Positions 14,873-36,574 of a stretch of DNA of 64,000 nucleotides are shown one piece after another. Every line of letters begins with the position of its first letter. Within the stretch, counting starts at the first letter, position 1. A model generated the notes under the pieces. It was not told the DNA's origin. It saw only the letters and a list, made by a program, of their open reading frames with translations, and did not search any database. Source of the DNA: Terriglobia bacterium (GTDB lineage: Bacteria > Acidobacteriota > Terriglobia > 20CM-2-55-15); assembly GCA_963664115.2 (NCBI GenBank), contig CAXWPJ010000012.1, positions 1 to 64,000 of the forward strand, read 5' to 3'. A program made the translations under genes and the position numbers.

Positions 14873-16340
14873 TACTACTGTGTTACAAACGAAGCGGCCC
14901 ACAGAGCGGACAGCACGGGAGCTGCTGGATGAGGAATCGTGCGATGCGAACGCGAAGTGAGGCGATCGAGCACGGATTATGTCGCTCGGGCCGGATCCGG
15001 GGCTCCGCGGGGTTTGAAGTGTCTGGGGAGTTGGGGGACGGATAGTCCAACATGCGTGACAAATGCAGAGGGGGAAAAACGGTTCCGCTCAGCGACCAGG
15101 AACCCATAAGCTGCGATGCATAAAGCGCCATGGTGGTGAAATCCACGCCAGCCGCGACCTTCGTAATGGCCCAGTCCGAGTTCCTGCTTGAGTTCCTGAT
15201 AGTCGCGTTCGATGATCCAGCGATGCTTGGCCCGATAGACCAGATTTGAAAGAGAGGTATTGGTCCCGAGACTGGAGAGCCAGTATTGAACCGGTTCGGA
15301 TTCGGTCTTGGGCCATTCGATCAACAACCATTCTTCCGGATGGGGCTCGTGGCGCTCATGATCGCGATGAGCCGTGCGAATCCGGATTGCGGCGAAGCGG
15401 GAGCGCAACGTGTCGGCCGTGCCTTCGCGCCAGGACACGTTCTTCCATTTTTGTCGAGGCAAGGAGAGAGCCAGTTGTTTGACCGAAACAGGACGATGCT
15501 TCTTGTGACGCCTCAACAGCGTCGGCGGGCGCCCCTGGCCGGTCCACGACTTCTTGGGCAGGGGTTGCCGACCGGGCTCCCAGACCGAGGTCGAGGATTG
15601 GATGCCAACCACATAAGGCAGCCCCAGTGCGGTAATCGTCGCGCGAAACTTACTGTCGTTGCCGTAGGCGGCATCGGCCAACACGGGAGCCGTCCCCACA
15701 CCGTCCGCAATCGCCTGTCGGATTTGGTCCAGAGCAATCGCAATCTTGGTCTGGAATCCAACCGCGTCGGGGACACCGGTCTTCTTGCGGCGTTCGGCAT
15801 CGTTCGCCCAAAGCTTCGGCAGGTACAGCCGCCATGCCACGGGCAGACTCGATTTCGCCGTCGCTACCGACAGACTGACCGCCACCCGGCAGTTCTCCTG
15901 CTTGCCGACCTGTCCACAGTATTGCCGGGCCACACCTACCGAGTGGGTCCCCTTCTTCACGAATCCGGTGTCGTCGACAATCCACGATTCAATCGGACCG
16001 TGCGCTTCCATCCCCGGCAACGTCGACTCCCGGACTTGTCGCAATATGGCCGCATCCTCCCAGGGGGCATCCGCCACCAGGTGATGCAGCGACTGATGCA
16101 TTTGGCGCACATTATCCGGAGCCAATCGCGCCGCCATCGGTTCCACGCTCTTGCGCTTGATTGGCAGCAGCAATCCCTTGCAGTACCACTTCAGCGGTTC
16201 ATGACGGTCGGCGTGTCCGGCGGCCGACGCCAGGCGTTCCATATAGGCCGCAAAACGTTCTTCCTGAGTGCCTGGCGCCTTCGTTTTGGCGCTCATGTGC
16301 CAATGCTAACACAAGCTCGTCATTTTGTAACACAGTAGTA
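14873..16340 (-). mobile_element. IS701-family element
   Basis: Perfect IRs TACTACTGTGTTACAAA; CTAG at 14869-14872 and 16341-16344. Confidence 0.88.
14977..16296 (-). CDS. IS701-family transposase
   Basis: IVDDTGFVKKG.HSVGVARQYCG, LADAAYG, RWIIERDYQELK. Confidence 0.92.
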   Translation of the reverse strand: MSAKTKAPGTQEERFAAYMERLASAAGHADRHEPLKWYCKGLLLPIKRKSVEPMAARLAPDNVRQMHQSLHHLVADAPWEDAAILRQVRESTLPGMEAHGPIESWIVDDTGFVKKGTHSVGVARQYCGQVGKQENCRVAVSLSVATAKSSLPVAWRLYLPKLWANDAERRKKTGVPDAVGFQTKIAIALDQIRQAIADGVGTAPVLADAAYGNDSKFRATITALGLPYVVGIQSSTSVWEPGRQPLPKKSWTGQGRPPTLLRRHKKHRPVSVKQLALSLPRQKWKNVSWREGTADTLRSRFAAIRIRTAHRDHERHEPHPEEWLLIEWPKTESEPVQYWLSSLGTNTSLSNLVYRAKHRWIIERDYQELKQELGLGHYEGRGWRGFHHHGALCIAAYGFLVAERNRFSPSAFVTHVGLSVPQLPRHFKPRGAPDPARAT

Positions 16341-16351
16341 CTAGCTGCGAT

Positions 16352-17062
16352 TTCTCAATGTCCGGTCGAGTAGACCCGGGGAATTTCACCCCGAGTCCCC
16401 CACAGAACCGTGCTTGAACCTCTCGATTCACACGGCTCTTGCCAGCCGTTCGCCGACCACCGGTGGGGGGCCGACACCCGATGAATCCGGCTCCTCCCGC
16501 TTGCGCGGTTGGCCAGTTCCAAAGAGCGAGCTGGCTCATCCCCTTCGCTCCCCTCCCATTACAAGAGGTTCATCACTACTACAGGATGATCCGCCCCTGA
16601 ACTCCGCATCCGTACTCTCGCCCTCGTGGTTCTGGCCACTTGTGGCTTCTCCGTTAGCATCGAAGTTCAGGTTCCCACGTTCCGCTCAACCGCCTCTTGG
16701 TAAGCTCAGGCCACCTCTCATGCCGGAGGCCACTCCGCCCGTAAACAGGTTCCGTCGGAGCTCGTCCCGCAGTATCTTCTCCCTGCGGTTTTGGCCATCG
16801 TCTTTAAATTTTTGACACTTCAACAGTGGTTCCCTTTCGGTCCTCTTCTTACCAGTCACCTGACCCAGTCATCGCCGGGCCTTTTCCTTCTGCGCTCACG
16901 ACCATGGCTTTTGACCACAGCCGCCAGAGGTGGTTTGAAACCGACGCCTGTACGCCGGCTCCGAGGGGCCCTCCCTCATCAGTTGAGTAGTTACGCACTC
17001 GATGACCTTGCGGCCCCCGAGCACTCGTGGCACACAGAAGATGATTTGTCAGGACTTGACCT
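16352..17062 (-). repeat. dif-like site S2, interrupted by group II intron
   Basis: TTCTCAATGTCCG|intron|AGAA-GATGAT-TTGTCAGGACTTGACCT on + strand. Confidence 0.8.
16365..17035 (-). ncRNA. ORF-less group II intron, copy 1 (671 nt)
   Basis: 5' GTGTG; domain V GAGCCGTGTGAATCGAGAGGTTCAAGCACGGTTC with CCG/CGT triad region; domain VI ending CTACTCGAC; no RT ORF. Confidence 0.88.
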
Positions 17063-17068
17063 TCGAAA

Positions 17069-17385
17069 TCAGGGCACCGGCACCCGTTCCTTCAGCTCCT
17101 CGGTCCAGTTCAGGACGACGTTGATTTGGGGGAGGGCTGCTCCGGCAGTACCCGTACCATCTAAGGGGAGCGCGACGAGAAGTCGTTGGTCGTCGGGGGG
17201 TAACGGCGTAGTTTCTATACGCCCCTTGCACATAGAACCCCTGGATCGGGAGCGGACGCTCGGTTCCAAATGCAAACGGACCATCGGTTGTAATATCAAC
17301 AGCCGCCAACTGCCCATTGGGTTTCAAGAAGAATAGTTCATCCCCATCGGCTGACCACTGAGGATCTTGTCCTTCCTCCTGGTTG
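17069..17385 (-). pseudogene. 3' remnant of kinase-TolB gene (frameshifted)
   Basis: PQWSADGDELFF...YAVTP / DDQRLLVA...INVVLNWTEELKERVPVP* in two frames. Confidence 0.75.
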
Positions 17386-17571
17386 CTAAGTGATTTTTGT
17401 ACCTTCAACTTGTAAGGCGGCGACCAGCACCAACAGCGAACAAAAAAATTTCAAAAAAAGAGCAAGTAGGTGTAGTTTTTCAGGTTTAGGGTCATGATCA
17501 ATACGGACCGAGAAGCTGTCGACTCCCGGCGATGCCTGCGATTGCTAGAGCTGACCGAACAGGGGGAATAG

Positions 17572-18621
17572 ATGTCGGAGCCCAAGCCTGGCGAGGTCAC
17601 CGCATTGCTCGAGGCCTCGAACAACGGCGAGCAGCAGGCTCTGGACGAGCTAGCCCCGCTGATGCGGATAAGTAAAACAAGCGGGGTTCCGAGTGCCGGG
17701 GGGTGGCAAGACGCAGAAGACCATGGGCGATCTCGGCGTGGCGAGAGCTTGAGAGCCAGCCTCGTTACGATTGCGCTCCTAGCTCCGTTTGGGGGCCTTT
17801 CAGCCCAGACGCCGGAACAGCCATCGGCAGATCCGATCGCGATCGACGTCATGACGTTCAACATCCGGACGTCGCTGGGCCGCGACGGTGAAAACGTATG
17901 GCCGAACCGCAAAGAGCTGGTGGCGGAGACGATCGAGCGCTTCGACCCGGACATCGTGGGGCTACAAGAGGCGCTGTCAGAGCAGATCGATTTCCTCGAG
18001 ACCGAGCTACCGCAGTACCGCTGGGTGGGGGTCGACCGCGGGCTGAATGGCGGTATCGGATTGAGCGAAGCCACGCCCATCTTCTACAGATACGAGGAGC
18101 TCGTCCCCATCGAGTCGGGCACGTTCTGGCTGTCGGACGACCTCGGTCCTCCGTCTCGCCGTCGTCGAGTCTCGCGGATCGTCACCTGGGCACGCTTCCA
18201 TCATTTGGCGACCCGCCAACAGATCTACGCGTTCAACACCCACTTCACCCTACGTCGCGGTCAGCGGCAGGTCGAGTCGGCAGAGCGCATCAACGAGCGT
18301 GTCGCCGCACTACCACCCGGAAGCTCGGTGATCGTCATGGGGGACTTCAACGCCGTCGCCGAGTCGAGCAGGACGTGGGAGGTCGCGACGAGCCAGGGTC
18401 TGCGCGACGCGTGGCTGATCGCTGGAGAGCGGCGTGGTCCGCCCCTGACGTCGAACGGCTTCGGTCCCCCGCCCGAGGGAAGGGAAGGTCGGATCGATTG
18501 GGTGCTCGTGAGCGACCCGATCGAGGTGCTTGCCGTCGCCACGATCGTGCACAGCGCCGACGGTCGGTACCCATCGGACCACTATCCCGTGCTGGCAAAG
18601 CTCCTCGTTCCGCCGGGCTGA
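17572..18621 (+). CDS. Endonuclease/exonuclease/phosphatase-family protein (true start probably ~17749)
   Basis: MTFNIR, GLQE, NTHF, GDFNA, RIDWV, SDHYPV motifs; signal-like segment at LRASLVTIALL. Confidence 0.85.
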   Translation: MSEPKPGEVTALLEASNNGEQQALDELAPLMRISKTSGVPSAGGWQDAEDHGRSRRGESLRASLVTIALLAPFGGLSAQTPEQPSADPIAIDVMTFNIRTSLGRDGENVWPNRKELVAETIERFDPDIVGLQEALSEQIDFLETELPQYRWVGVDRGLNGGIGLSEATPIFYRYEELVPIESGTFWLSDDLGPPSRRRRVSRIVTWARFHHLATRQQIYAFNTHFTLRRGQRQVESAERINERVAALPPGSSVIVMGDFNAVAESSRTWEVATSQGLRDAWLIAGERRGPPLTSNGFGPPPEGREGRIDWVLVSDPIEVLAVATIVHSADGRYPSDHYPVLAKLLVPPG

Positions 18622-18906
18622 GCGGCCCGCTCGCCCCGCCATCTGGACGCGATCGCTCCCGCTGGCCGCTGGGGGAACGTCGTCTTGCGGTGCCGTTGGC
18701 CCTTAGAGGCCGTTTTCCCAACGGTTGGCTCCCCGCGCGCAAATTTCCATCATGGCCCGGAACAATACCGTTCCAATTTTGAGGCCGAAGATACGGGTGC
18801 AGTCGACTAGCTACTCACCTTGCAACCTCTAGTCAGTCCTGCTGAATATATTTGCCGGAGAAAGCAGACAGGAGAGTTACGCCTACTTGACAGAGGAGTC
18901 CAGATA

Positions 18907-18926
18907 CAGGACTTGAGAATGGATAT
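18907..18926 (-). repeat. Half/degenerate dif-like site
   Basis: CAGGACTTGAGAATGGATAT matches the arm and flank at 36562-36581. Confidence 0.5.
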
Positions 18927-18989
18927 TAGGGGTAGAGAAGAACGGACGGCCTCCTTCGTGGCACGTGAGGCCGAGACAGACCGAATCTC

Positions 18990-19006
18990 CTTAACTTGAT
19001 AGTGCC
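18990..19006 (-). mobile_element. Isolated IS6-like terminal repeat
   Basis: CTTAACTTGATAGTGCC vs GGCACTGTCAAGTTAAG at 38736. Confidence 0.55.
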
Positions 19007-19152
19007 CGTCCTCCCGATGACAAAAACTTAAGCAAATCTTCAGTCAACAAGCCTTCGACGTCCCACTACAATCTTTCCCGTAAAACACGGAAGAGTTCAA
19101 TCATCGTGCCGGCTCTGCCTTATTCAGGCTTGGCAATAATGAGGAGAATGAT

Positions 19153-19332
19153 TTGGCTGAGGACCTGTTGGAGCTGCAAGAAGCTGTGGAACTGCTAAAG
19201 AAAAGGGGTCATGCGGTCGGTCAGTCATTCCATAACAATGAGGGAATACTGTACGTCGAAATTGACGGTAAGGAATTACCAGCGTTAGATGTAATCCGGC
19301 TTTCACAGAAACCGCCGCGTACACGAGAATAG
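19153..19332 (+). CDS. Small hypothetical protein (59 aa), not in ORF track
   Basis: GAGGAG at 19141, TTG start, MAEDLLELQEAVELLKKRGH...RTRE*. Confidence 0.5.
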   Translation: MAEDLLELQEAVELLKKRGHAVGQSFHNNEGILYVEIDGKELPALDVIRLSQKPPRTRE

Positions 19333-19474
19333 GACTACAGCCCGCTGAGGCTCGAGAAATCACTCCTACCTTCCCACCAACGTCTTCTCCTCAACCTCCC
19401 GAAAGCACTTCGGGCGCTTCGCGGGCTCCGGGGGCAGGCCACGTCGAATTAATAGCAGGGTTCAGGTATTACAG

Positions 19475-20199
19475 TTCTCAACGTCCGGTCGAGTAGACCC
19501 GGGGAATTTCACCCCGAGTCCCTCACAGAACCGTGCTTGAACCTCTCGATTCACACGGCTCTTGCCAGCCGTTCGCCGACCACCTCACGGTGGGGGGCCG
19601 ACACCCGATGAATCCGGCTCCTCCCGCTTGCGCGGTTGGCCAGTTCCAAAGAGCGAGCTGGCTCATCCCCTTCGCTCCCCTCCCATTACAAGAGGTTCAT
19701 CACTACTACAGGATGATCCGCCCCTGAACTCCGCATCCGTACTCTCGCCCTCGTGGTTCTGGCCACTTGTGGCTTCTCCGTTAGCATCGAAGTTCAGGTT
19801 CCCACGTTCCGCTCAACCGCCTCTTGGTAAGCTCAGGCCACCTCTCATGCCGGAGGCCACTCCGCCCGTAAACAGGTTCCGTCGGAGCTCGTCCCGCAGT
19901 ATCTTCTCCCTGCGGTTTTGGCCATCGTCTTTAAATTTTCGACACTTCAACAGTGGTTCCCTTTCGGTCCTCTTCTTACCAGTCACCTGACCCAGTCATC
20001 GCCGGGCCTTTTCGGGCCTTTTCCTTCTGCGCTCACGACCATGGCTTTTGACCACAGCCGCCAGAGGTGGTTTGAAACCGACGCCTGTACGCCGGCTCCG
20101 AGGGGCCCTCCCTCATCAGTTGAGTAGTTACGCACTCGATGACCTTGCGGCCCCCGAGCACTCGTGGCACACAGAAGATGATTTATCAGGACTTGACGA
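19475..20199 (-). repeat. dif-like site S3, interrupted by group II intron
   Basis: TTCTCAACGTCCG|intron|AGAA-GATGAT-TTATCAGGACTTGACGA. Confidence 0.8.
19488..20172 (-). ncRNA. ORF-less group II intron, copy 2 (685 nt)
   Basis: Near-identical to copy 1 apart from a 4-nt and a 10-nt insertion and a few substitutions. Confidence 0.88.
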
Positions 20200-20290
20200 T
20201 CACTGAACCTCAGCGGCCGACTGCTCACTCAACCTTTGTGCGTAGTTGAGATGTCTGCGAACATAGCCTGTATTAACGGGAGAATCAGAC

Positions 20291-20545
20291 ATGAGTATTG
20301 ATCCTGTTCCCAAGATGTCCCCTCTGTGCCAATCCTTAACGAGAGACGGTCACACAGTGCAGATTGAAATCTTTCAAGGTGATTCCGGTAAGTGGATTCT
20401 CGAAGTCGTCGATCAGGTGGGCAATTCTACGGTCTGGGACGATCAGTTCGACACCGATCAACAGGCGTTGGATGAATTGCACAGGACGGTCGTGGAGGAA
20501 GGCATCGAATCTCTCATTGGTCTACCTTCGGATCGCGTACATTAG
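20291..20545 (+). CDS. Small acidic hypothetical protein between two dif-like sites
   Basis: 84 aa, GGAG RBS; WILEVVD.GNSTVWDDQF. Confidence 0.7.
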   Translation: MSIDPVPKMSPLCQSLTRDGHTVQIEIFQGDSGKWILEVVDQVGNSTVWDDQFDTDQQALDELHRTVVEEGIESLIGLPSDRVH

Positions 20546-20577
20546 GCTCTGGAGCGAGGTAAATCCACACAACCCGA

Positions 20578-20617
20578 TTCTCACGGTCCGCGAAGATGAT
20601 TTATCAGGACTTGACCT
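20578..20617 (-). repeat. dif-like site S4 (intact)
   Basis: TTCTCACGGTCCGCGAA-GATGAT-TTATCAGGACTTGACCT. Confidence 0.8.
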
Positions 20618-20623
20618 TGAAAA

Positions 20624-23257
20624 TCAGGGGATCGGCACCCGTTGCCTCAGTGCTTCAATCCAGTTTAGGACCACGGTGATGGTGTCGCTTCCGGATTGCG
20701 CCGGAATCGAGAACAAAAATCGCTGACCATCGTCCGAAGCTTCATAGGGATGCCTCCCGGTGGCGGACGGCACAGAGAATAGTGCCTCTCCCTGGCCGAG
20801 GGAAAATGATGGCGCGTAAACAACCGATACGGCTGTCAACATACCGTCATCTGCAATGTAGAACAGTTCGTCACCATCGTCTCGCCAGACGGGCGCGGAG
20901 CCACCCGTTCCGGAAACTGGAATGGGAAAACTGGAGGTCGGAAACGCGTTGACGTACACCTCGGCCCGTCCCGATTGGTCGGAGGTGTATGCAACCCAAT
21001 TTCCGTCGGGCGAGAAAACGCCCTGACTTTCCTGAAACTGCGAACTAATGTAGGGAGTGGGCTCACCGTTTTGCTGCCCATCCGCCATCGGGACGCTCCA
21101 GATGTCGCCGCCGTCCAGATACAGCACCCAGCGGCCATCACGCGACCAGTCCATCGGCCAACCGCCATTCGCTACCAGATCCACCAGAATCTCGTCCGCG
21201 CCCGGTGCTGCAGTCACATAAAGGTCGAATGCCCCCCGGCGATTGGAAGCAAACACAATCTGTTCCCCGCCTGGAGACCACACGGGGACCAGATCCCCAT
21301 CGGTACCGAAGGTCCATGGCTGGGCGACTCCGCGCGAGATGTCGAGCTCCCACACATCGTTCGTCACGGCCGTGCCGACTAGTGATGTTCGATGCATCGC
21401 AACACGCGTTCCGTCGCGGGACAGGCGAAATCCATTGTAAATGCCCGGGGGGCCAACAGTGTCCAGCACAACACCGCTCCGGTCTAACCAGGCAAGCTGG
21501 TCGTCTCCGGACACCTGATATGCGAGGATGCCGTTGTCAGACGCAGAAAATAACACTGGAATCGTGCCACTGAGGTTTCGGACTTGGTCAGCTACGTCCA
21601 AAACAGGCCCCGTCAATTCGAGTCTATCGGGATCGAACCTTTGCGCCACCAGCGTCGTACCGCGCCGAAACAAGAGATAGCCGCTTTCGGAAGACACGTT
21701 GGACGGGACGTACGTTGCCGTGGTGAGGTCAGGAAGAAGTTCGATGGTTTCGCCGCCGTCGACCGAACCCACGCGGAGCCCCCCGCTGGCGGTGGCCTCA
21801 CGGTAGGTGAAAAGGAAATGCCGACCGTCCGGCAAGAACCATGGATCGCGGGGAGCCCTTCCGAGACCGGATAACCTCAATGGCTCGGGAGGCGTCTGGC
21901 CGGCTTCGTCCACCTGGTAGATTGCTCCAGGGCCGCTAAAAACGATCACGCCATCGTCGTTCCACGTTGCACCGTTATTAGCACTCAGGTCACGGATGTT
22001 GGCCACGAATGAAGTCGGGCCACCCGAGACAGGGGCTGTCCTTATCGCGCCATCCGCCAAAAAGCCGATCCTCGTGCTGTCCGGCTTCCAGAACGGTTCG
22101 CTGGCTCCTTCCGTGCCGGGCAGTGGACGCGCTTCGGGTGAGTCGAGCGCCTGCACCCAGAGCCGACGGTTCCCACCGGATATAGCAAGCCCACCGGATA
22201 TAGCAAGATAGCGGCCGTCAGGAGACAGCTTGAACCGGACTGCGCCTGAGAAAACATCCGGAACGGGCACGGTGAAGCGCACCATCCGTTGATCACTCGG
22301 ATCTTGACGGAAGTACACCAAAGCTAGAGCTGCCAAGGCGATCAGAAGTATTACAGCAATGGACCACGCAATGCGCGAAGAGCCGCTTCTCACCGACACG
22401 GAATCTGATTGAAGGGCAGTCGTTTCGCCTTCCTCGATCGTTAGCCGAATATCGCCGACCGCCTGCCATCGCCTGCGCGGGTCTTTGCGCAAACATTTTG
22501 CAATGATCGACCGAACGCCGGCAGGCGCGCGTTCCAACGCCGGAGTCCCAGCGATCACGGATGCGAGGATCTCCGGTGGGGCGTTACCCGGGAACAGCTT
22601 CTCGCCGGTCGCCATTTCATACAGCACGGCCCCGAAGGCCCACACGTCGGAGCGATGATCGACGGGCTTGCCGGTGGCTTGTTCAGGAGACATGTAGGCG
22701 GCCGTTCCCAAAAGCACGCCCGCCTCGGTGGCCGCCATACTGAGGGTGGGAGAGTTCGACAGACTGGCATTCCCTTCGTCACCCGCGAACGCTTTCGCTA
22801 ACCCGAAATCCAGCACTTTTACTTTTCCCTCAGGCGTTACCTTGATGTTCGCGGGTTTGAGATCCCGATGGATAACGCCCTTTTCGTGGGCGGCTTCGAG
22901 AGCCTCTGTGATCTGGAGCGCCAGCTTCAGGGTTTCTTCGACGGGGATCGCACCGCGCTTGATGTGATCGGCAAGCGTGTCGCCTTCGACAAGTTCCAAG
23001 ACGAGGAAGTGCGTCCCGTTGTCTTCTTCAAACCCGTGAATGGCTGCAATGTTCGGATGGTTGAGTGATGCCAGCGGCTTCGCTTCGCGTTCAAAACGTG
23101 CGAGCCGGTCGGCATCCTTCGCAAACTCTTCAGGCAGGGTCTTAATAGCGACTTCACGCCCGAGCTTCGTATCCCGCGCACGCCACACTTCGCCCATTCC
23201 ACCCTTACCCAAGAGCGTTGAGATCTCGTAGTGACCGAGTTTGGTGCCAAGTTCCAT
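20624..23257 (-). CDS. Hanks-type Ser/Thr protein kinase with TM helix and TolB/PD40 beta-propeller
   Basis: GKGGMG, VAIK, HRDLKPANI, DFG, YMSPEQ; TM at IAWSIAVILL; repeated SPDG/WSxDG blades. Confidence 0.93.
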   Translation of the reverse strand: MELGTKLGHYEISTLLGKGGMGEVWRARDTKLGREVAIKTLPEEFAKDADRLARFEREAKPLASLNHPNIAAIHGFEEDNGTHFLVLELVEGDTLADHIKRGAIPVEETLKLALQITEALEAAHEKGVIHRDLKPANIKVTPEGKVKVLDFGLAKAFAGDEGNASLSNSPTLSMAATEAGVLLGTAAYMSPEQATGKPVDHRSDVWAFGAVLYEMATGEKLFPGNAPPEILASVIAGTPALERAPAGVRSIIAKCLRKDPRRRWQAVGDIRLTIEEGETTALQSDSVSVRSGSSRIAWSIAVILLIALAALALVYFRQDPSDQRMVRFTVPVPDVFSGAVRFKLSPDGRYLAISGGLAISGGNRRLWVQALDSPEARPLPGTEGASEPFWKPDSTRIGFLADGAIRTAPVSGGPTSFVANIRDLSANNGATWNDDGVIVFSGPGAIYQVDEAGQTPPEPLRLSGLGRAPRDPWFLPDGRHFLFTYREATASGGLRVGSVDGGETIELLPDLTTATYVPSNVSSESGYLLFRRGTTLVAQRFDPDRLELTGPVLDVADQVRNLSGTIPVLFSASDNGILAYQVSGDDQLAWLDRSGVVLDTVGPPGIYNGFRLSRDGTRVAMHRTSLVGTAVTNDVWELDISRGVAQPWTFGTDGDLVPVWSPGGEQIVFASNRRGAFDLYVTAAPGADEILVDLVANGGWPMDWSRDGRWVLYLDGGDIWSVPMADGQQNGEPTPYISSQFQESQGVFSPDGNWVAYTSDQSGRAEVYVNAFPTSSFPIPVSGTGGSAPVWRDDGDELFYIADDGMLTAVSVVYAPSFSLGQGEALFSVPSATGRHPYEASDDGQRFLFSIPAQSGSDTITVVLNWIEALRQRVPIP
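22172..22207. repeat. 18-bp in-frame tandem duplication in kinase (LAISGG x2)
   Basis: CCCACCGGATATAGCAAG twice. Confidence 0.8.
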
Positions 23258-23354
23258 GTTTAAAGTGTGTCGCCGAAAATGCCGTCAAAAACTCGGTAAA
23301 GGATACTAAGGCAGGAAGTTAGGCGCTATCAAATTCTCAAGTCCTGAGAAACGA

Positions 23355-24603
23355 GGTGGTCTCAACAGATCGATGCAACACTGTACCTAAAAGGAGGAGG
23401 TGGAGTGTATGCGTAAGAAACGACGGAAGAAACAGAGTAAAGACCGGGTGCGGCGAGGCTACACACTCGCCGATATAGACGAGGTGTGGATTCGCTGGCA
23501 GCGGGGAGAGAGTCTGAAAGCGATCGGACGTGTGTTCGGAAAGGAGGGCTCTTCGGTTTATGGTCAGATCGCACCGTATGGTGGAATCTGTCCCAGGACA
23601 CGATGCCGCTCTAAGCGGGCGCTGACCCTCGCCGAGCGTGAAGAGATTTCCCGAGGCATTGCCGCCAAGGGATCGATCCGTTCAATTGCCGCCTCGCTGT
23701 CGCGTGCACCCTCCACAGTCAGTCGGGAGATCGGTCGCAATGGGGGCTATGATAACTATCGAGCGTTGGAGGCGGATGAACGCGCATGGGAACGGGCTCA
23801 CCGCCCGAAGAGATGTCGACTGATCCGCTATCCCAGCTTACGCGGGATCGTCGAAGAGAAGCTCCGGGAGGATTGGGCACCGCGACAGATTGCGGGTTGG
23901 CTGAAACGCGAATATCCAGACGACGAGTCACTTTACGTGTCACACGAAACGATCTATCGCAGCCTTTTCATCCAGGCCCGCGGGGCTCTGAAGAAAGAAC
24001 TGACACAGCATCTACGGACCAAACGCACGATTCGCCGGTCCCGGCATGCCAGTCGCAAAGGCCGGGGTGGCGGGCAGATCCCGGATCTGATATCGATCCG
24101 TGAGCGCCCGGCTTCGGTTGAAAATCGCGCGGTCCCCGGACACTGGGAAGGGGATCTCATAGCGGGTTCGAACAACACCTACATTGCGACATTGGTCGAA
24201 CGTTTCTCCCGGTACGTGATGCGGGTGAAGGTTCCGAATAAGGAAACCGAAACCGTCATCAACGCGCTGATCGAACACGCAGACAAACTCCCGACCGAAC
24301 TCTATAAAACACTGACCTGGGATCGCGGATTGGAAATGGCCAATCACAAACGGTTCACTCTGGCCACCGACATTGCCGTTTACTTTTGCGATCCGAGGAG
24401 TCCCTGGCAACGGGGTTCGAACGAAAACACGAACGGTTTGCTCCGACAGTATTTCCCTAAAGGTACGGACTTGTCGGTTCACTCACAGGAGCATTTGGAT
24501 ATGATCGCAAGGAAGCTCAACGGGCGACCTCGTGAGACGCTGGACTTCGCTAATCCGGCAGAGACATTAAACGCAGGTGTTGCTTCGACCGGTTGATCTG
24601 AAT
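23355..24603 (+). mobile_element. IS30-family element (diverged from the first copy)
   Basis: 26-bp imperfect IRs; 2-bp duplication GA. Confidence 0.88.
23409..24596 (+). CDS. IS30-family transposase
   Basis: Same motifs as 4354-5535. Confidence 0.93.
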   Translation: MRKKRRKKQSKDRVRRGYTLADIDEVWIRWQRGESLKAIGRVFGKEGSSVYGQIAPYGGICPRTRCRSKRALTLAEREEISRGIAAKGSIRSIAASLSRAPSTVSREIGRNGGYDNYRALEADERAWERAHRPKRCRLIRYPSLRGIVEEKLREDWAPRQIAGWLKREYPDDESLYVSHETIYRSLFIQARGALKKELTQHLRTKRTIRRSRHASRKGRGGGQIPDLISIRERPASVENRAVPGHWEGDLIAGSNNTYIATLVERFSRYVMRVKVPNKETETVINALIEHADKLPTELYKTLTWDRGLEMANHKRFTLATDIAVYFCDPRSPWQRGSNENTNGLLRQYFPKGTDLSVHSQEHLDMIARKLNGRPRETLDFANPAETLNAGVASTG

Positions 24604-24726
24604 GACATTGTCGGACGTTGAGAATTGGCGAGCTTCGAGTGTCGCCGTAAACAATTGAAAAAGAATGAGATAAGGTCCATTGGAGGCCAATCGAGGGACG
24701 GTAAGCGAAAGTAGGGCGGCGATGAG

Positions 24727-34168: not shown

Positions 34169-35353
34169 CTACGCACTATCCTGAATTGGAACCTCCTTTG
34201 ATTCGAGAGCGGCGAGCTGTGCCGCGGTTAATCGCTCGACCAGACGCATCGGTCCCCGGCAGATCGGACACGGTGCCGGTGGGGTAGCACCCGCCTCGGA
34301 CTCCGGCTCGGTGATGGACTCCTGACCTAAGAGGTGCCGACAGAGTTCCAGCATCGTCTTGCGTTTCCGATTTGCCATCCATCCGTAGTACCGGATGCGG
34401 GGAAAGCCTTTCGGTAAGACATGCAGGAGGAATCGACGGAGGAACTCTTCGGGTTGGAGTGTCATTGTTCGTGGACGGCCATTGTGGCGATAGTCCTTCC
34501 AGCGGAATGTAACGCCGGATTGGTTGACATCGAGGATGCGATGATTCGAGATGGCCACCCGATGGGTATAGCGGGCCAGGTACTGAAGGACGTGTTGGGG
34601 TCCGCCGAATGGTTCTTTGGCGTACACCACCCAGTTCCGATCCTTCAGATCGTCGAGGAACCGCTCGAAGGTGGATTCGGTGGCCAGTTCCAGACACTCC
34701 CCATGGAAAACGAGCGTCTTGTTTCCGAAGGCTTCGGCTAAACCGTCGAGAAACTTTTCTCTGAAAACGTAGCTGAGCTTCTGGACCGGGAGGAAGAAGT
34801 CGGTCCGGGAGGAGTGGATCCACCGGTCGTGATCCGGGGACAGTCCGCCACCGGGAACCACACAGTGGATATGGGGATGGCGTTGCAGGGTTTGTCCCCA
34901 GGTATGCAGGATGCTGAGGAATCCGATCTCGCCGCCCAGATACCTGGGGTTTCGGGCCACTTCGATCAGCGCCGCCGCACTGGTTCGGAACAGAAGCGCA
35001 TAGAGCACCTTCTTGTTCTGCCAGATCAATGGGATCAACTGATGGGGCAGGCTGAAGACCAGATGGAAGTATCCGATCGGTAGCAGTTCCTGTTGCCGTT
35101 TCTCGACCCAGGTGTTCCGCGCATTGGTCTGGCACTTCGGGCAGTGGCGGTTCCGGCACGAGTGGTAGACCAGCGTTTGGTGGCCACAGTGGTCGCATCG
35201 TTTCCGGTTCCCGCCCAGTGCGGCGGTCCGGCAATGGGTAATCGCGTTGAGGACCTTGACCTGGGGCCAGGCCAGCGCTTTCAAATACCGTTGTCGGAAT
35301 CGGTCTCCGACGATGCGAATCACGTCAGCCACCTCAAAGGGTGGCCGGCTCAC
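34169..35353 (-). CDS. IS91-family transposase
   Basis: Protein identical to 133-1317. Confidence 0.92.
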   Translation of the reverse strand: MSRPPFEVADVIRIVGDRFRQRYLKALAWPQVKVLNAITHCRTAALGGNRKRCDHCGHQTLVYHSCRNRHCPKCQTNARNTWVEKRQQELLPIGYFHLVFSLPHQLIPLIWQNKKVLYALLFRTSAAALIEVARNPRYLGGEIGFLSILHTWGQTLQRHPHIHCVVPGGGLSPDHDRWIHSSRTDFFLPVQKLSYVFREKFLDGLAEAFGNKTLVFHGECLELATESTFERFLDDLKDRNWVVYAKEPFGGPQHVLQYLARYTHRVAISNHRILDVNQSGVTFRWKDYRHNGRPRTMTLQPEEFLRRFLLHVLPKGFPRIRYYGWMANRKRKTMLELCRHLLGQESITEPESEAGATPPAPCPICRGPMRLVERLTAAQLAALESKEVPIQDSA

Positions 35354-36231
35354 TTCTTTGGATCCTTAACCACAGGTGAAAGCTTCAACTGATCCAGAGG
35401 ATTGCGCGCGGTTCGAAGATGGCGCCGGGACAGTTGCAGGTAGAGCGTGGTATCGCTGAGCCGACTGTGTCCCATCAAGAGCTGGATCGTGCGCAAGTCG
35501 GTCCCGGACTCTAGCAGGTGGGTCGCGAAGCTGTGCCGTAGCGTGTGCGGACCGATCCTCTGGGTCAGACCCGCACGCTGGGCGGCCCCATGAACGGCAT
35601 GCCAGACCACCTTGTCCGAGATCGGAGCATCCGTGCCCCGGTGTCCTGCACTGCTGTGAAACAGATAGACCTCGGGCTTTTTCAATAACCAGTACCCCCG
35701 TAACGCTTCAAGCAGATTGCGACTCAACGGGACATCCCGGTCCCGACGCCCTTTCCCGTCGCGGATATGCACCAGCATCCGTTCACTGTCGATGTCGGCC
35801 ACCTTCAACACGGCGGCTTCGGCCCGTCGCATCCCGGTCCCGTAGAGCACCATCAGGATGGCCCGGTGCATCGGACTCAATGCGGCTTGGATCAACCGGC
35901 GGACTTCAGACGGACCCAGGATCGTGGGTAGTTTCCGCGCACTCTTGGGCATGGGCAGATCATCCAGTTCCAGATCCGCACGTCGCAGCAGCACCTTCTT
36001 GTAAAGGAATCGTATCGCCGAGGTCCGCATCCCGACCGTACTCGCCGCCAGCTTCTTTTCGGTCAGTAAGTACAGCTGAAAACGCCGTACCTCCTCGGCT
36101 CCCATCAAGGCCGGAGACTTGCCGAAGTAATTCGCGAATTGTTCGACTGCCAGAATGTAGCCACGACTCGTGGCCGGGGAATAGTTCCGTCGCTGGAGTT
36201 CCTCCAGCATCCGTTCTCGTAGTTGGGTCAT
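35350..36231 (-). CDS. Tyrosine recombinase with N-terminal SAM-like domain
   Basis: YGTGMR, GKG, HTLRHSFATHL, GH, catalytic Y. Confidence 0.92.
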   Translation of the reverse strand: MTQLRERMLEELQRRNYSPATSRGYILAVEQFANYFGKSPALMGAEEVRRFQLYLLTEKKLAASTVGMRTSAIRFLYKKVLLRRADLELDDLPMPKSARKLPTILGPSEVRRLIQAALSPMHRAILMVLYGTGMRRAEAAVLKVADIDSERMLVHIRDGKGRRDRDVPLSRNLLEALRGYWLLKKPEVYLFHSSAGHRGTDAPISDKVVWHAVHGAAQRAGLTQRIGPHTLRHSFATHLLESGTDLRTIQLLMGHSRLSDTTLYLQLSRRHLRTARNPLDQLKLSPVVKDPKK

Positions 36232-36534: not shown

Positions 36535-36574
36535 ATCTCAACGTCCGAGAAGATGATTTGTCAGGATTTGAGAA
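36535..36574 (-). repeat. dif-like site S6 (intact)
   Basis: ATCTCAACGTCCGAGAA-GATGAT-TTGTCAGGATTTGAGAA. Confidence 0.82.

Follow-up and report, generated by a model that had tools for sequence, protein, structure and literature searches.

Two ORF-less introns interrupt the same repeat

The 64,000-nt stretch analysed here (the window; positions 1 to 64,000 of contig CAXWPJ010000012.1, or C12:1-64000, from the Terriglobia bacterium assembly GCA_963664115.2) carries on its minus strand two copies, A1 and A2, of a group II intron devoid of a long open reading frame (ORF-less intron A). Each copy divides one occurrence of a 39-bp repeat. The assembly, hereafter G000, amounts to 4.89 Mb in 12 contigs and is 97% complete. 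The introns, the halves of the sites that they split and two uninterrupted sites are arranged as follows (IBS, intron-binding site; ↓, insertion point or boundary):

16365..17035, minus strand: ORF-less group II intron copy A1, 671 nt, 5' GUGUG...AC 3'; Rfam matches, ends set against empty sites
19488..20172, minus strand: ORF-less group II intron copy A2, 685 nt; Rfam matches and alignments
17036..17059, minus strand: 5' part of the split site upstream of A1, TCAAGTCCTGACAAATCATCTTCT, containing IBS2 (CAAAT) and IBS1 (ATCTTCT)
16351..16364, minus strand: 3' part of the split site downstream of A1, CGGACATTGAGAAA, with IBS3 as its first C
20173..20196, minus strand: 5' part of the split site upstream of A2, TCAAGTCCTGATAAATCATCTTCT
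19474..19487, minus strand: 3' part of the split site downstream of A2, CGGACGTTGAGAAC
20578..20615, minus strand: uninterrupted 39-bp site after a kinase/PD40 gene, ATCTTCG↓CGGAC, with an IBS1 mismatch at -1 (G for U)
36535..36572, minus strand: uninterrupted 39-bp site with perfect IBS1 and IBS3 (ATCTTCT↓C)

A BLAST search of the whole assembly revealed a third full copy, A3 (675 nt, C12:563816-564490), inserted at the identical base, in keeping with an earlier, sequence-only reading of this DNA according to which the introns are aimed at a repeated site. A1 and A2 start with GTGTGCC and finish with CTCGAC, and the ends of all three copies, GUGUG...AC, conform to the consensus GUGYG...AY. 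The alignment of A1 with A2 contains 2 substitutions and 14 gap columns; over the three copies together, the differences are 2 substitutions, a 10-nt tandem duplication in domain I of A2 and a 4-nt insertion in domain IV of A2 and A3. The listed ORFs on the intron strand inside A1 and A2 are at most 77 aa long and, at only 671-685 nt, no copy has room for a reverse transcriptase (RT) gene. The Rfam matches, the junctions and the short ORFs thus uphold what that reading had described, namely two near-identical, ORF-less and hence non-autonomous introns at the same insertion base.

The three copies are all flanked by ...TCAAGTCC[T/C]GA[C/T]AAATCATCTTCT on the 5' side and CGGAC[A/G]TTGAGAA on the 3' side. 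The intron divides the site between T23 and C24, a position that falls within the inner repeat (TTCT↓C) and precedes the apparent crossover point discussed below by 6 nt; the original wording, 4 nt into one arm, holds provided that the arm meant is the inner repeat, TTCTC, which pairs with GAGAA. The two uninterrupted targets proposed at the outset are both real, the one at 36535 being perfect and the one at 20578 mismatched at -1. Over 300 nt outside the site, on both sides, the three copies are dissimilar (local alignment scores of 11-14), and these unrelated flanks imply that the copies are not an assembly duplication. Together with the many empty sites, they speak for the independent insertions suggested before. 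The cassette downstream of A2 is also present intron-free at C12:~429500.

Ribozyme domains and predicted fold

Four Rfam matches at gathering score were obtained in the window, all on the minus strand: RF01999 (group-II-D1D4-2) at 16858-16977 (106.4 bits) and 19985-20114 (100.7 bits), and RF00029 (domains V/VI) at 16365-16440 and 19488-19563 (55.4 and 58.7 bits, cut-off 40). The RF00029 alignment and a consensus fold define the 3' end of A1:

16365..16440, minus strand: domains V and VI; the branch-point A at 16371 (intron nt 665) is bulged

This A is unpaired in the CUACUC of domain VI, seven bases from the intron end, and the alignment of domain V, GAGCCGUGUGAAUC-GAGA-GGUUCAAGCACGGUUC, displays the catalytic AGC triad and the 2-nt bulge. 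The consensus fold of 6 relatives comprises 194 pairs, of which 54 show compensatory changes; in it the branch A remains unpaired, and exon-binding site (EBS) 1 falls in a terminal loop and EBS2 in an internal loop. Domain I is recognised by the RF01999 match as well as by EBS1 and EBS2 sequences that covary with the exons. The elements are group II introns with domains I, V and VI, and intron A is predicted to splice.

The exon-binding sites match the centre of the repeat

The exon-binding sites of A1 were placed as follows:

16774..16780, minus strand: EBS1, intron nt 256-262, AGAAGAU, in the loop of the hairpin CCGCAG-GGAGAAGAUA-CUGCGG (nt 250-272)
16805..16809, minus strand: EBS2, intron nt 227-231, AUUUA, in a domain I internal loop, unpaired in the consensus fold
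16717, minus strand: EBS3 candidate, intron nt 319, G

The EBS1 loop is the exact complement of the last seven bases of the 5' exon, AUCUUCU, and so includes the partner of the UUCU that had been singled out as a short IBS1. EBS2 complements UAAAU at -13..-9. As for EBS3, nt 319 is the only one of 903 alignment columns that is complementary to the first 3'-exon base in 6/6 sequences; since a single column fits but only three states are represented, it is a weak candidate. Taken together, EBS2, EBS1 and the candidate EBS3 are the complement of UAAAU-C-AUCUUCU↓C, a stretch within the repeat's conserved centre.

Relatives of intron A were fetched from 40 related genomes (11 of the 41 genomes, G000 included, contain a match), their junctions were read and their sequences aligned. 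In relatives inserted in five other types of target, EBS1 covaries with the 5' exon, and the EBS2 stretch also varies among relatives and tracks their exons. The pairings, with genome (G), locus (L) and contig (C) labels, are:

EBS1/IBS1, G000 intron A: AGAAGAT / ATCTTCT
EBS1/IBS1, G002 L011: GGAAATG / CGTTTCC, one G-U
EBS1/IBS1, G021 L010, G003 L014 and G002 L027: CATGGC / GCCATG
EBS1/IBS1, degenerate G000 copy on C10 (5' G and 3' AC lost): TATAGT / ACTATA
EBS1/IBS1, G013 L013: CTTCGT / ATGAAG, one G-U
EBS1/IBS1, G001 L021: TACTGT / ACAGTA
EBS1/IBS1, Sinorhizobium meliloti L056: AGTCGT / ACGACT, same hairpin position
EBS2/IBS2, G000 intron A: ATTTA / TAAAT
EBS2/IBS2, G002 (L011 lineage): ATTGT / ACAAT
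EBS2/IBS2, G003 L014 and G002 L027: CGTAT / ATATG
EBS2/IBS2, G001: AAGTTG / TAACTT

Target recognition is thus of the IIB type and not in the IIC mode; class IIC ribozymes are much shorter and lack an EBS2. A second ORF-less lineage, found in G002 and 83% identical, occupies the opposite strand of a variant site (...ACAAUGUCGUUUCC↓CAGGACUUGAGA), again just 5' of a C(A)GGAC(N)TTGAGA arm, with both EBS1 and EBS2 re-tuned.

In G000, the word NAAATNATCTTCTC occurs 73 times and is carried by 62 unoccupied and 3 occupied sites, and 65 of the 136 unoccupied sites offer a perfect IBS1 together with IBS3. The IBS2 of the three occupied sites reads UAAAU twice and CAAAU once, and none has GAAAU, the commonest form; this fits pairing with EBS2, albeit in small numbers.

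A class D-like family with reverse transcriptases in its relatives

The other introns of G000 are intron C on contig C4, intron B in three full copies and a fourth type on C5. Intron C shares the Rfam domain I type of intron A, is 67% identical to it and encodes, at C4:17047-18306, an intact 420-aa RT with YADD; intron B is of the RF02005 type with a 440-aa RT. In the sister species G001, an intron whose domains I to III (DI-DIII) are 88% identical to those of intron A carries an RT within domain IV, and this RT is 56.5% identical to that of intron C. The RT C-termini, ...QPGLFPHW in intron C and ...DPTLFAHW in the G001 sister, are near matches to the class D motif (PxLFxHW), given as LX3AX3PXLF[V/A]HW in the section of PMC4615759 used here, where RmInt1-type introns are described as class D introns with IIB structure and 419-aa intron-encoded proteins (IEPs) lacking DNA-binding and endonuclease (D/En) domains. 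Over its full length, the intron C RT is about 60% identical to a 419-aa IEP that is multi-copy on S. meliloti plasmids; the S. meliloti intron concerned also matches RF01999, with DI-DIII 69% identical to intron A.

On account of the C-terminal motif and the kinship with this IEP, we call the family class D-like, a relative of RmInt1 with a IIB-type ribozyme, the assignment being made through kin RTs and ribozyme likeness. A sequence search of the PDB with the two RTs did not separate the intron classes.

The S. meliloti intron used for comparison (L056, CP140947.1 823810-828063) is inserted after ...CGCTATGCGGACGACT, in the YADD codons of what appears to be the RT gene of another intron, with RF01998 lying upstream of the insertion. 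Its position in these codons suggests a class D-type intron that homes into RT genes, not RmInt1 itself.

An ORF-less copy with the short domain IV of intron A is also present in G001. The form is common to G000, G001, G013 and G021 and has been kept across at least three genera, which means that it is old. Intron A retains CAACC..GGGAGGAGCC, the stretch that precedes the start codon in both RT-bearing relatives. Given this stretch, and given that RmInt1-type RNAs with a deleted ORF are mobile when the IEP is supplied separately and that related IEPs can cross-complement (described in part of PMC4615759), action of an RT in trans on intron A is plausible by analogy.

The 39-bp repeat bounds co-oriented cassettes

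The repeat is an imperfect palindrome with the consensus TCAAGTCCTGA[G/T/C]AAATCATCTT[C/G][T/G]CGGAC[G/A/C]TTGAGAAT. It was found in 136 copies at up to 6 mismatches and in 118 at up to 3 mismatches to the IUPAC form, and for its 24-nt 5' part alone, with split sites counted, the number is 154 at up to 5 mismatches. Among the 41 genomes it is present in G000, in three of the four other genomes of the genus and, as one copy, in another genus; public contig collections, from which close kin are possibly excluded, yielded the pattern at just 3 loci, all in a single further Terriglobia assembly.

The repeat is predicted to fold into a hairpin of 4+4+5 bp that carries two bulges and is closed by a loop of 6 nt. 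Averaged over all 136 sites, the folding energy is -6.6 kcal/mol compared with -3.0 ± 1.8 for shuffles, about 2 standard deviations better, but the two window sites alone fold no better than shuffles (z of -1.1 to +0.7). The centre and the loop are conserved as strongly as the arms, and no covariation appears at the inner pair 11:22 (G11-C22 in 44, G11-G22 in 22, C11-C22 in 15, C11-G22 in 4). A weak hairpin with these two properties would suit a selfish palindrome of the REP (repetitive extragenic palindromic) kind or a 3'-end RNA element, which the intron merely exploits as an abundant sequence in the way that RmInt1 exploits an insertion sequence (IS). The same can be said of the missing adjacent integrase, of the location of about 41% of the copies after a conserved gene tail, many of them in gene fragments, and of the several IS families that insert in the site, as they do in REPs (PMC1525189, in the part cited).

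The arrangement of the copies argues otherwise, and we regard such an origin as unlikely. Of 103 pairs of neighbouring sites separated by less than 10 kb, 85 have both sites in the same orientation, and in 17 of 20 short non-redundant units (389-1297 bp) the longest ORF runs in the direction of the site. These ORFs encode unrelated complete proteins, among them two GNATs, two glyoxalase-type proteins, a SnoaL-like protein, an SRPBCC protein, a DUF3024 protein, a binding protein and a HemD-like protein; in Pfam, 11 of the 20 match unrelated families (one weakly) and 9 are without a match. One such cassette unit recurs between different neighbours, the edges of homology falling inside the site at positions 29-34. 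The site does not flank the two Y1-transposase (Y1_Tnp) genes of G000, which have a single site variant in their vicinity, on one side only; a pairing of REPs with their tyrosine transposases (REP/RAYT) was rejected on these grounds.

Identity linked to the upstream unit ends at positions 32-39, and identity linked to the downstream unit covers position 34 onward. In 38 pairs of sites that share the downstream unit only, positions 11, 22 and 23 are at background likeness, positions 34-41 are linked, and position 29 is slightly more alike (0.55 against a background of 0.38). The homology breaks place the apparent cassette boundary at N↓TTGA, similar to G↓TTRRRY of integron attC sites, with a precision limited by four invariant bases in the 29-34 interval.

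As in attC arrays, the cassettes are co-oriented and mostly contain a single ORF. The AAC...GTT triplets of attC are replaced by a left box TCTCAAG (G in 131, C in 4 and A in 1 of 136) and a right box NTTGAGA (N being G in 70, A in 36 and C in 30 of 136). The 6-nt loop is well below the 20-100 nt described for the variable terminal structure of attC (in the portion of PMC4889954 drawn on here). One IntI above the NCBIfam cut-off (TIGR02249, 440 bits) is encoded at C9:714608-715549. No copy of the site lies within 20-40 kb around the intI of G000, G001 or G002, and a strict search for RYYYAAC...GTTRRRY beside intI returned nothing. Downstream of this IntI (L039 8609-9550; also L039 4460-5215), small same-strand ORFs and inverted repeats GCCCTAAC...GTTAGGGC can be discerned by eye, and the locus looks like a small canonical integron whose sequence is unrelated to the 39-bp site.

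A dif site bound by Xer recombinases has two 11-bp arms around a centre of 6-8 bp (about 28-30 bp in all) and occurs once per replicon, or in alternating orientation in pdif modules. The label dif-like, given to the repeat on first inspection, had to be abandoned: the repeat has no 11-6-11 layout, its half-sites TTCTC/GAGAA are 5 bp (5- to 7-bp) and occur four times, and its 118-154 copies are mostly co-oriented.

Overall, the 39-bp repeat is probably a recombination site of some kind, with a role that is most likely that of an integron-attC-like cassette junction, even though it departs from attC sites in several features. The initial distinction from attC sites is accordingly doubtful with respect to this role (co-oriented cassettes, break at N↓TTGA) and correct in that the repeat is no canonical attC. 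That IntI is the enzyme acting on it is held with less confidence than its being a recombination site. In our judgement, the site is too short for current integron finders and standard searches would miss it. More tentatively, and with considerable doubt about the whole, it might represent a new minimal cassette recombination site serving more than 100 cassettes in a Terriglobia genus, and intron A an old ORF-less class D parasite dedicated to it, which re-tunes its guides to either strand and to differing site variants and relies on foreign RTs.

Probable retrohoming in trans and its alternatives

We consider it likely that the three ORF-less class D-like copies, all at one fixed base of the cassette-bounding repeat, arose by retrohoming with an RT acting in trans. 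Since the guides match the repeat, the same base is used in three copies and these are ORF-less, an RT borrowed from another intron is the likely source of the copying, and retrohoming in trans explains most simply why near-identical copies are found in three cassettes unrelated to one another. Because the family's own RT was not found in the assembly, mobilisation in trans is a step that we infer from the sequences.

The intron would be transcribed together with the upstream cassette and then splice, the expected ligated exons being ...AAAUCAUCUUCU↓CGGAC (...AUCUUCU↓CGGAC). Through the retained DIVa-like stretch, the lariat would bind an endonuclease-less class D RT and reverse-splice into the top strand of the site, and the DNA copy would be made at the replication fork, as shown experimentally for RmInt1. 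If the repeat is, as seems most likely, a short attC-like recombination site, the insertion, lying 6 nt upstream of the apparent crossover, would split it.

The strongest competitor on the side of the intron, though improbable, is a single ancient insertion whose spread was passive, through recombination of cassettes, duplication or gene conversion, with no retrohoming in G000. In its favour, the junction is of a recombination type, individual cassettes turn up in several arrays, contigs C6 and C11 have long duplicated stretches in common, and the missing cognate RT would also be explained. With a crossover at N↓TTGA, however, the intron and the cassette upstream of it would move as one, whereas the cassettes that precede the three copies are unrelated. 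Furthermore, the split sites differ at the variable positions 8 and 11, the flank shared for homologous exchange is only 24 nt plus 14 nt, and the 2 substitutions between copies imply a recent spread.

A IIC-like intron recognising the hairpin shape of the site and a 4-nt IBS1 (UUCU), the analogy originally drawn, can be set aside as very improbable, for although the site can fold as a bulged hairpin (mean of -6.6 against -3.0 kcal/mol), the relative in G002 occupies the mirror position of the opposite strand and class IIC is the class known for attC sites and terminators (PMC4424553, in the part cited), the 671-nt, IIB-like ribozyme has an EBS2, the complementarity of its 7-nt EBS1 and 5-nt EBS2 covaries across relatives, the insertion lies within the hairpin and not after it, and the kin RTs are class D-like.

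Several observations weigh against retrohoming of a guided, trans-served intron. An RT of its own lineage, which the sequence-only reading had hoped to see elsewhere in the genome, was not found in the 97%-complete G000; the best is that of intron C at 56.5%, the others reaching at most 34%. Intron C, which has another intron nested in its domain VI (DVI), possesses an EBS1 loop that mismatches its own 5' exon, and this mismatch makes it an imperfect model for a homing-competent partner. The RT frame of the G001 sister is seemingly interrupted near its start in that assembly. Only 3 of the 68 sites with perfect IBS1 and IBS3 are occupied. The EBS3 assignment is based on 6 sequences only; G021 L022, located directly after another intron, fits the pairing rules poorly, and so does the IBS2 of G021 L010. 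The 10-nt duplication of A2 lies in domain I, and A2 scores lower against RF01999 than A1 does (100.7 compared with 106.4). Contigs of four public DNA runs over 15900-20700 break at the repeats and are uninformative, with no intron-removing joint and no bridging piece, and empty and occupied alleles were not seen in them. Finally, the exact 5' junction (24 nt) was not found in genome_contigs and metagenome_contigs, collections from which close kin are possibly excluded.

Other elements in and around the repeat

The 39-bp site is also an insertion hot spot: besides intron A it hosts at least four mobile elements, and every one of them keeps to a constant position of its own. An IS30-family element (HTH_38 and rve; window 23400-24596, region 23337-24650) lies in a variant site. 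Element X1 (GCAGTATGAAAGG...CATAG), in at least 7 copies, is inserted after the AAATC of the site, and element X3 (...CCATCAATA↓AATCATC) is found in the site in 6 copies. An IS91-like unit also sits inside it. At 34169-36231 on the minus strand of the window, an IS91-family Y2 transposase gene overlaps a gene for a 293-aa tyrosine recombinase. The best NCBIfam match of this recombinase is the integron-integrase model, below its cut-off and without the middle segment of the model; the unit is present in six identical genome copies, several of which adjoin the 39-bp site, and the recombinase is an alternative candidate for the enzyme of the site.

Fifty-six of the 136 sites follow the conserved tail ...FEELKERVPVP* (...NWFEELKERVPVP*) of a kinase/PD40-propeller family, represented in the window at 17049-17408 and 20624-23257. 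The tail is conserved at the nucleotide level and often belongs to short fragments or frames with in-frame stops, which suggests that in these cases the repeated unit is longer than the site. Long stretches of C6 (24-48 kb), C11 (1-8 and 54-58 kb) and the ends of C2 have a counterpart with identical site spacing and flanks, oppositely oriented, on a second contig; these stretches are either real segmental duplications or strain variants separated by the assembler.

Intron B interrupts four different host introns of G000 (L001 2542-4479 on C4; L002 ~1003-2940 on C5; L004, minus strand, on C11; L003, a fragment, on C10) and one of G021 (L010), always nested at one structural point that directly follows domain V, on the 5' strand of domain VI. 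Its ends, 5' UUGCG...GU 3', are unusual and resemble those of UHB.I2 (PMC7923331, in the part cited). These nestings look like twintrons resembling homing into the DVI of other introns. In the host intron at C11:~21030-23500 (L004, minus strand), only the start of the RT frame is left; its 3' exon starts with TTGAGAAT, the apparent crossover point of the 39-bp site, and its 5' junction was not found.

Comparison with known introns and cassette systems

The closest known systems are the class D introns RmInt1, RmInt2 and Sr.md.I1 of Sinorhizobium. Intron A shares with them the RF01999 family (S. meliloti intron, DI-DIII 69% identical), the places of EBS1, EBS2 and EBS3, a 1-2 nt linker between IBS2 and IBS1 and homing into a repeated genomic element, and its kin share RTs of about 420 aa without D/En and with the class D C-terminal motif (as described in part of PMC4615759). 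The Sinorhizobium introns encode their RT and target an insertion sequence, whereas intron A is naturally ORF-less, has no RT of its own lineage in G000 and targets a 39-bp cassette-junction repeat. In Pseudomonas putida, a group II intron is found at REPs in 2 of 9 copies (PMC1525189, in the part cited).

ORF-less introns are called 'rare' in bacteria and 'nearly always' accompanied by related RT-bearing introns in the section of PMC4424553 used here. Intron A resembles the ORF-less introns of bacteria and archaea that are presumed to borrow the IEP of a relative in having a related RT-encoding intron in the genome; it differs in that this RT is only 56% identical to the lineage's own and in that its EBS have diversified across species.

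Like the 39-bp site, the attC sites of integrons and of clusters of attC sites lacking an integrase (CALINs) follow co-oriented, single, promoterless-looking ORFs as imperfect palindromes with bulged bases, have a boundary comparable to the apparent one here (N↓TTGA against G↓TTRRRY), are homogeneous within a lineage and form arrays away from intI. The present site departs from them in its length (37-39 bp), 6-nt loop, AAG/NTT boxes and weak fold, and the G000 intI is accompanied by other, canonical-looking repeats.

IIC-attC introns (S.ma.I2 and relatives) are likewise specialised on cassette-bounding recombination sites (PMC4424553, same section). They belong to class C, read a DNA stem-loop plus a very short IBS1, have their own RT and lie opposite to the cassettes (PMC7923331, in the part cited), in contrast to intron A, which is class D-like with a IIB ribozyme, pairs over 7+5+1 nt, has no ORF and is inserted in the sense direction. 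Three IIB introns, UHB.I2, H.ha.F1 and H.ha.F2, have been reported in an integron and a CALIN (Sonbol & Siam 2021, PMC7923331). They are similar to intron A in being non-IIC and cassette-oriented, in their CALIN-type context and in their kinship with En-less IEPs; they differ in being CL1 or class E, RT-encoding or truncated, and located after and not inside attC, and the portion of that paper used here shows no EBS-attC match.

Trans-served ORF-less introns, homing of class D introns into repeats and the presence of introns in integrons are already known in kind. What distinguishes the present case is the combination of a naturally ORF-less class D-like lineage, a short non-canonical cassette junction and clear covariation between EBS and exons. 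Before 2021, the only group II introns known from cassette arrays belonged to class IIC, a class that recognises the shape of the DNA; intron A would reach a cassette junction purely by RNA-DNA base pairing and without an enzyme gene of its own, as a compact natural example of a non-autonomous retroelement. The insertion would split the site and could freeze neighbouring cassettes together. The intron also marks a short and very abundant cassette-junction site, and the covariation of EBS and exons across species amounts to a directly testable targeting code.

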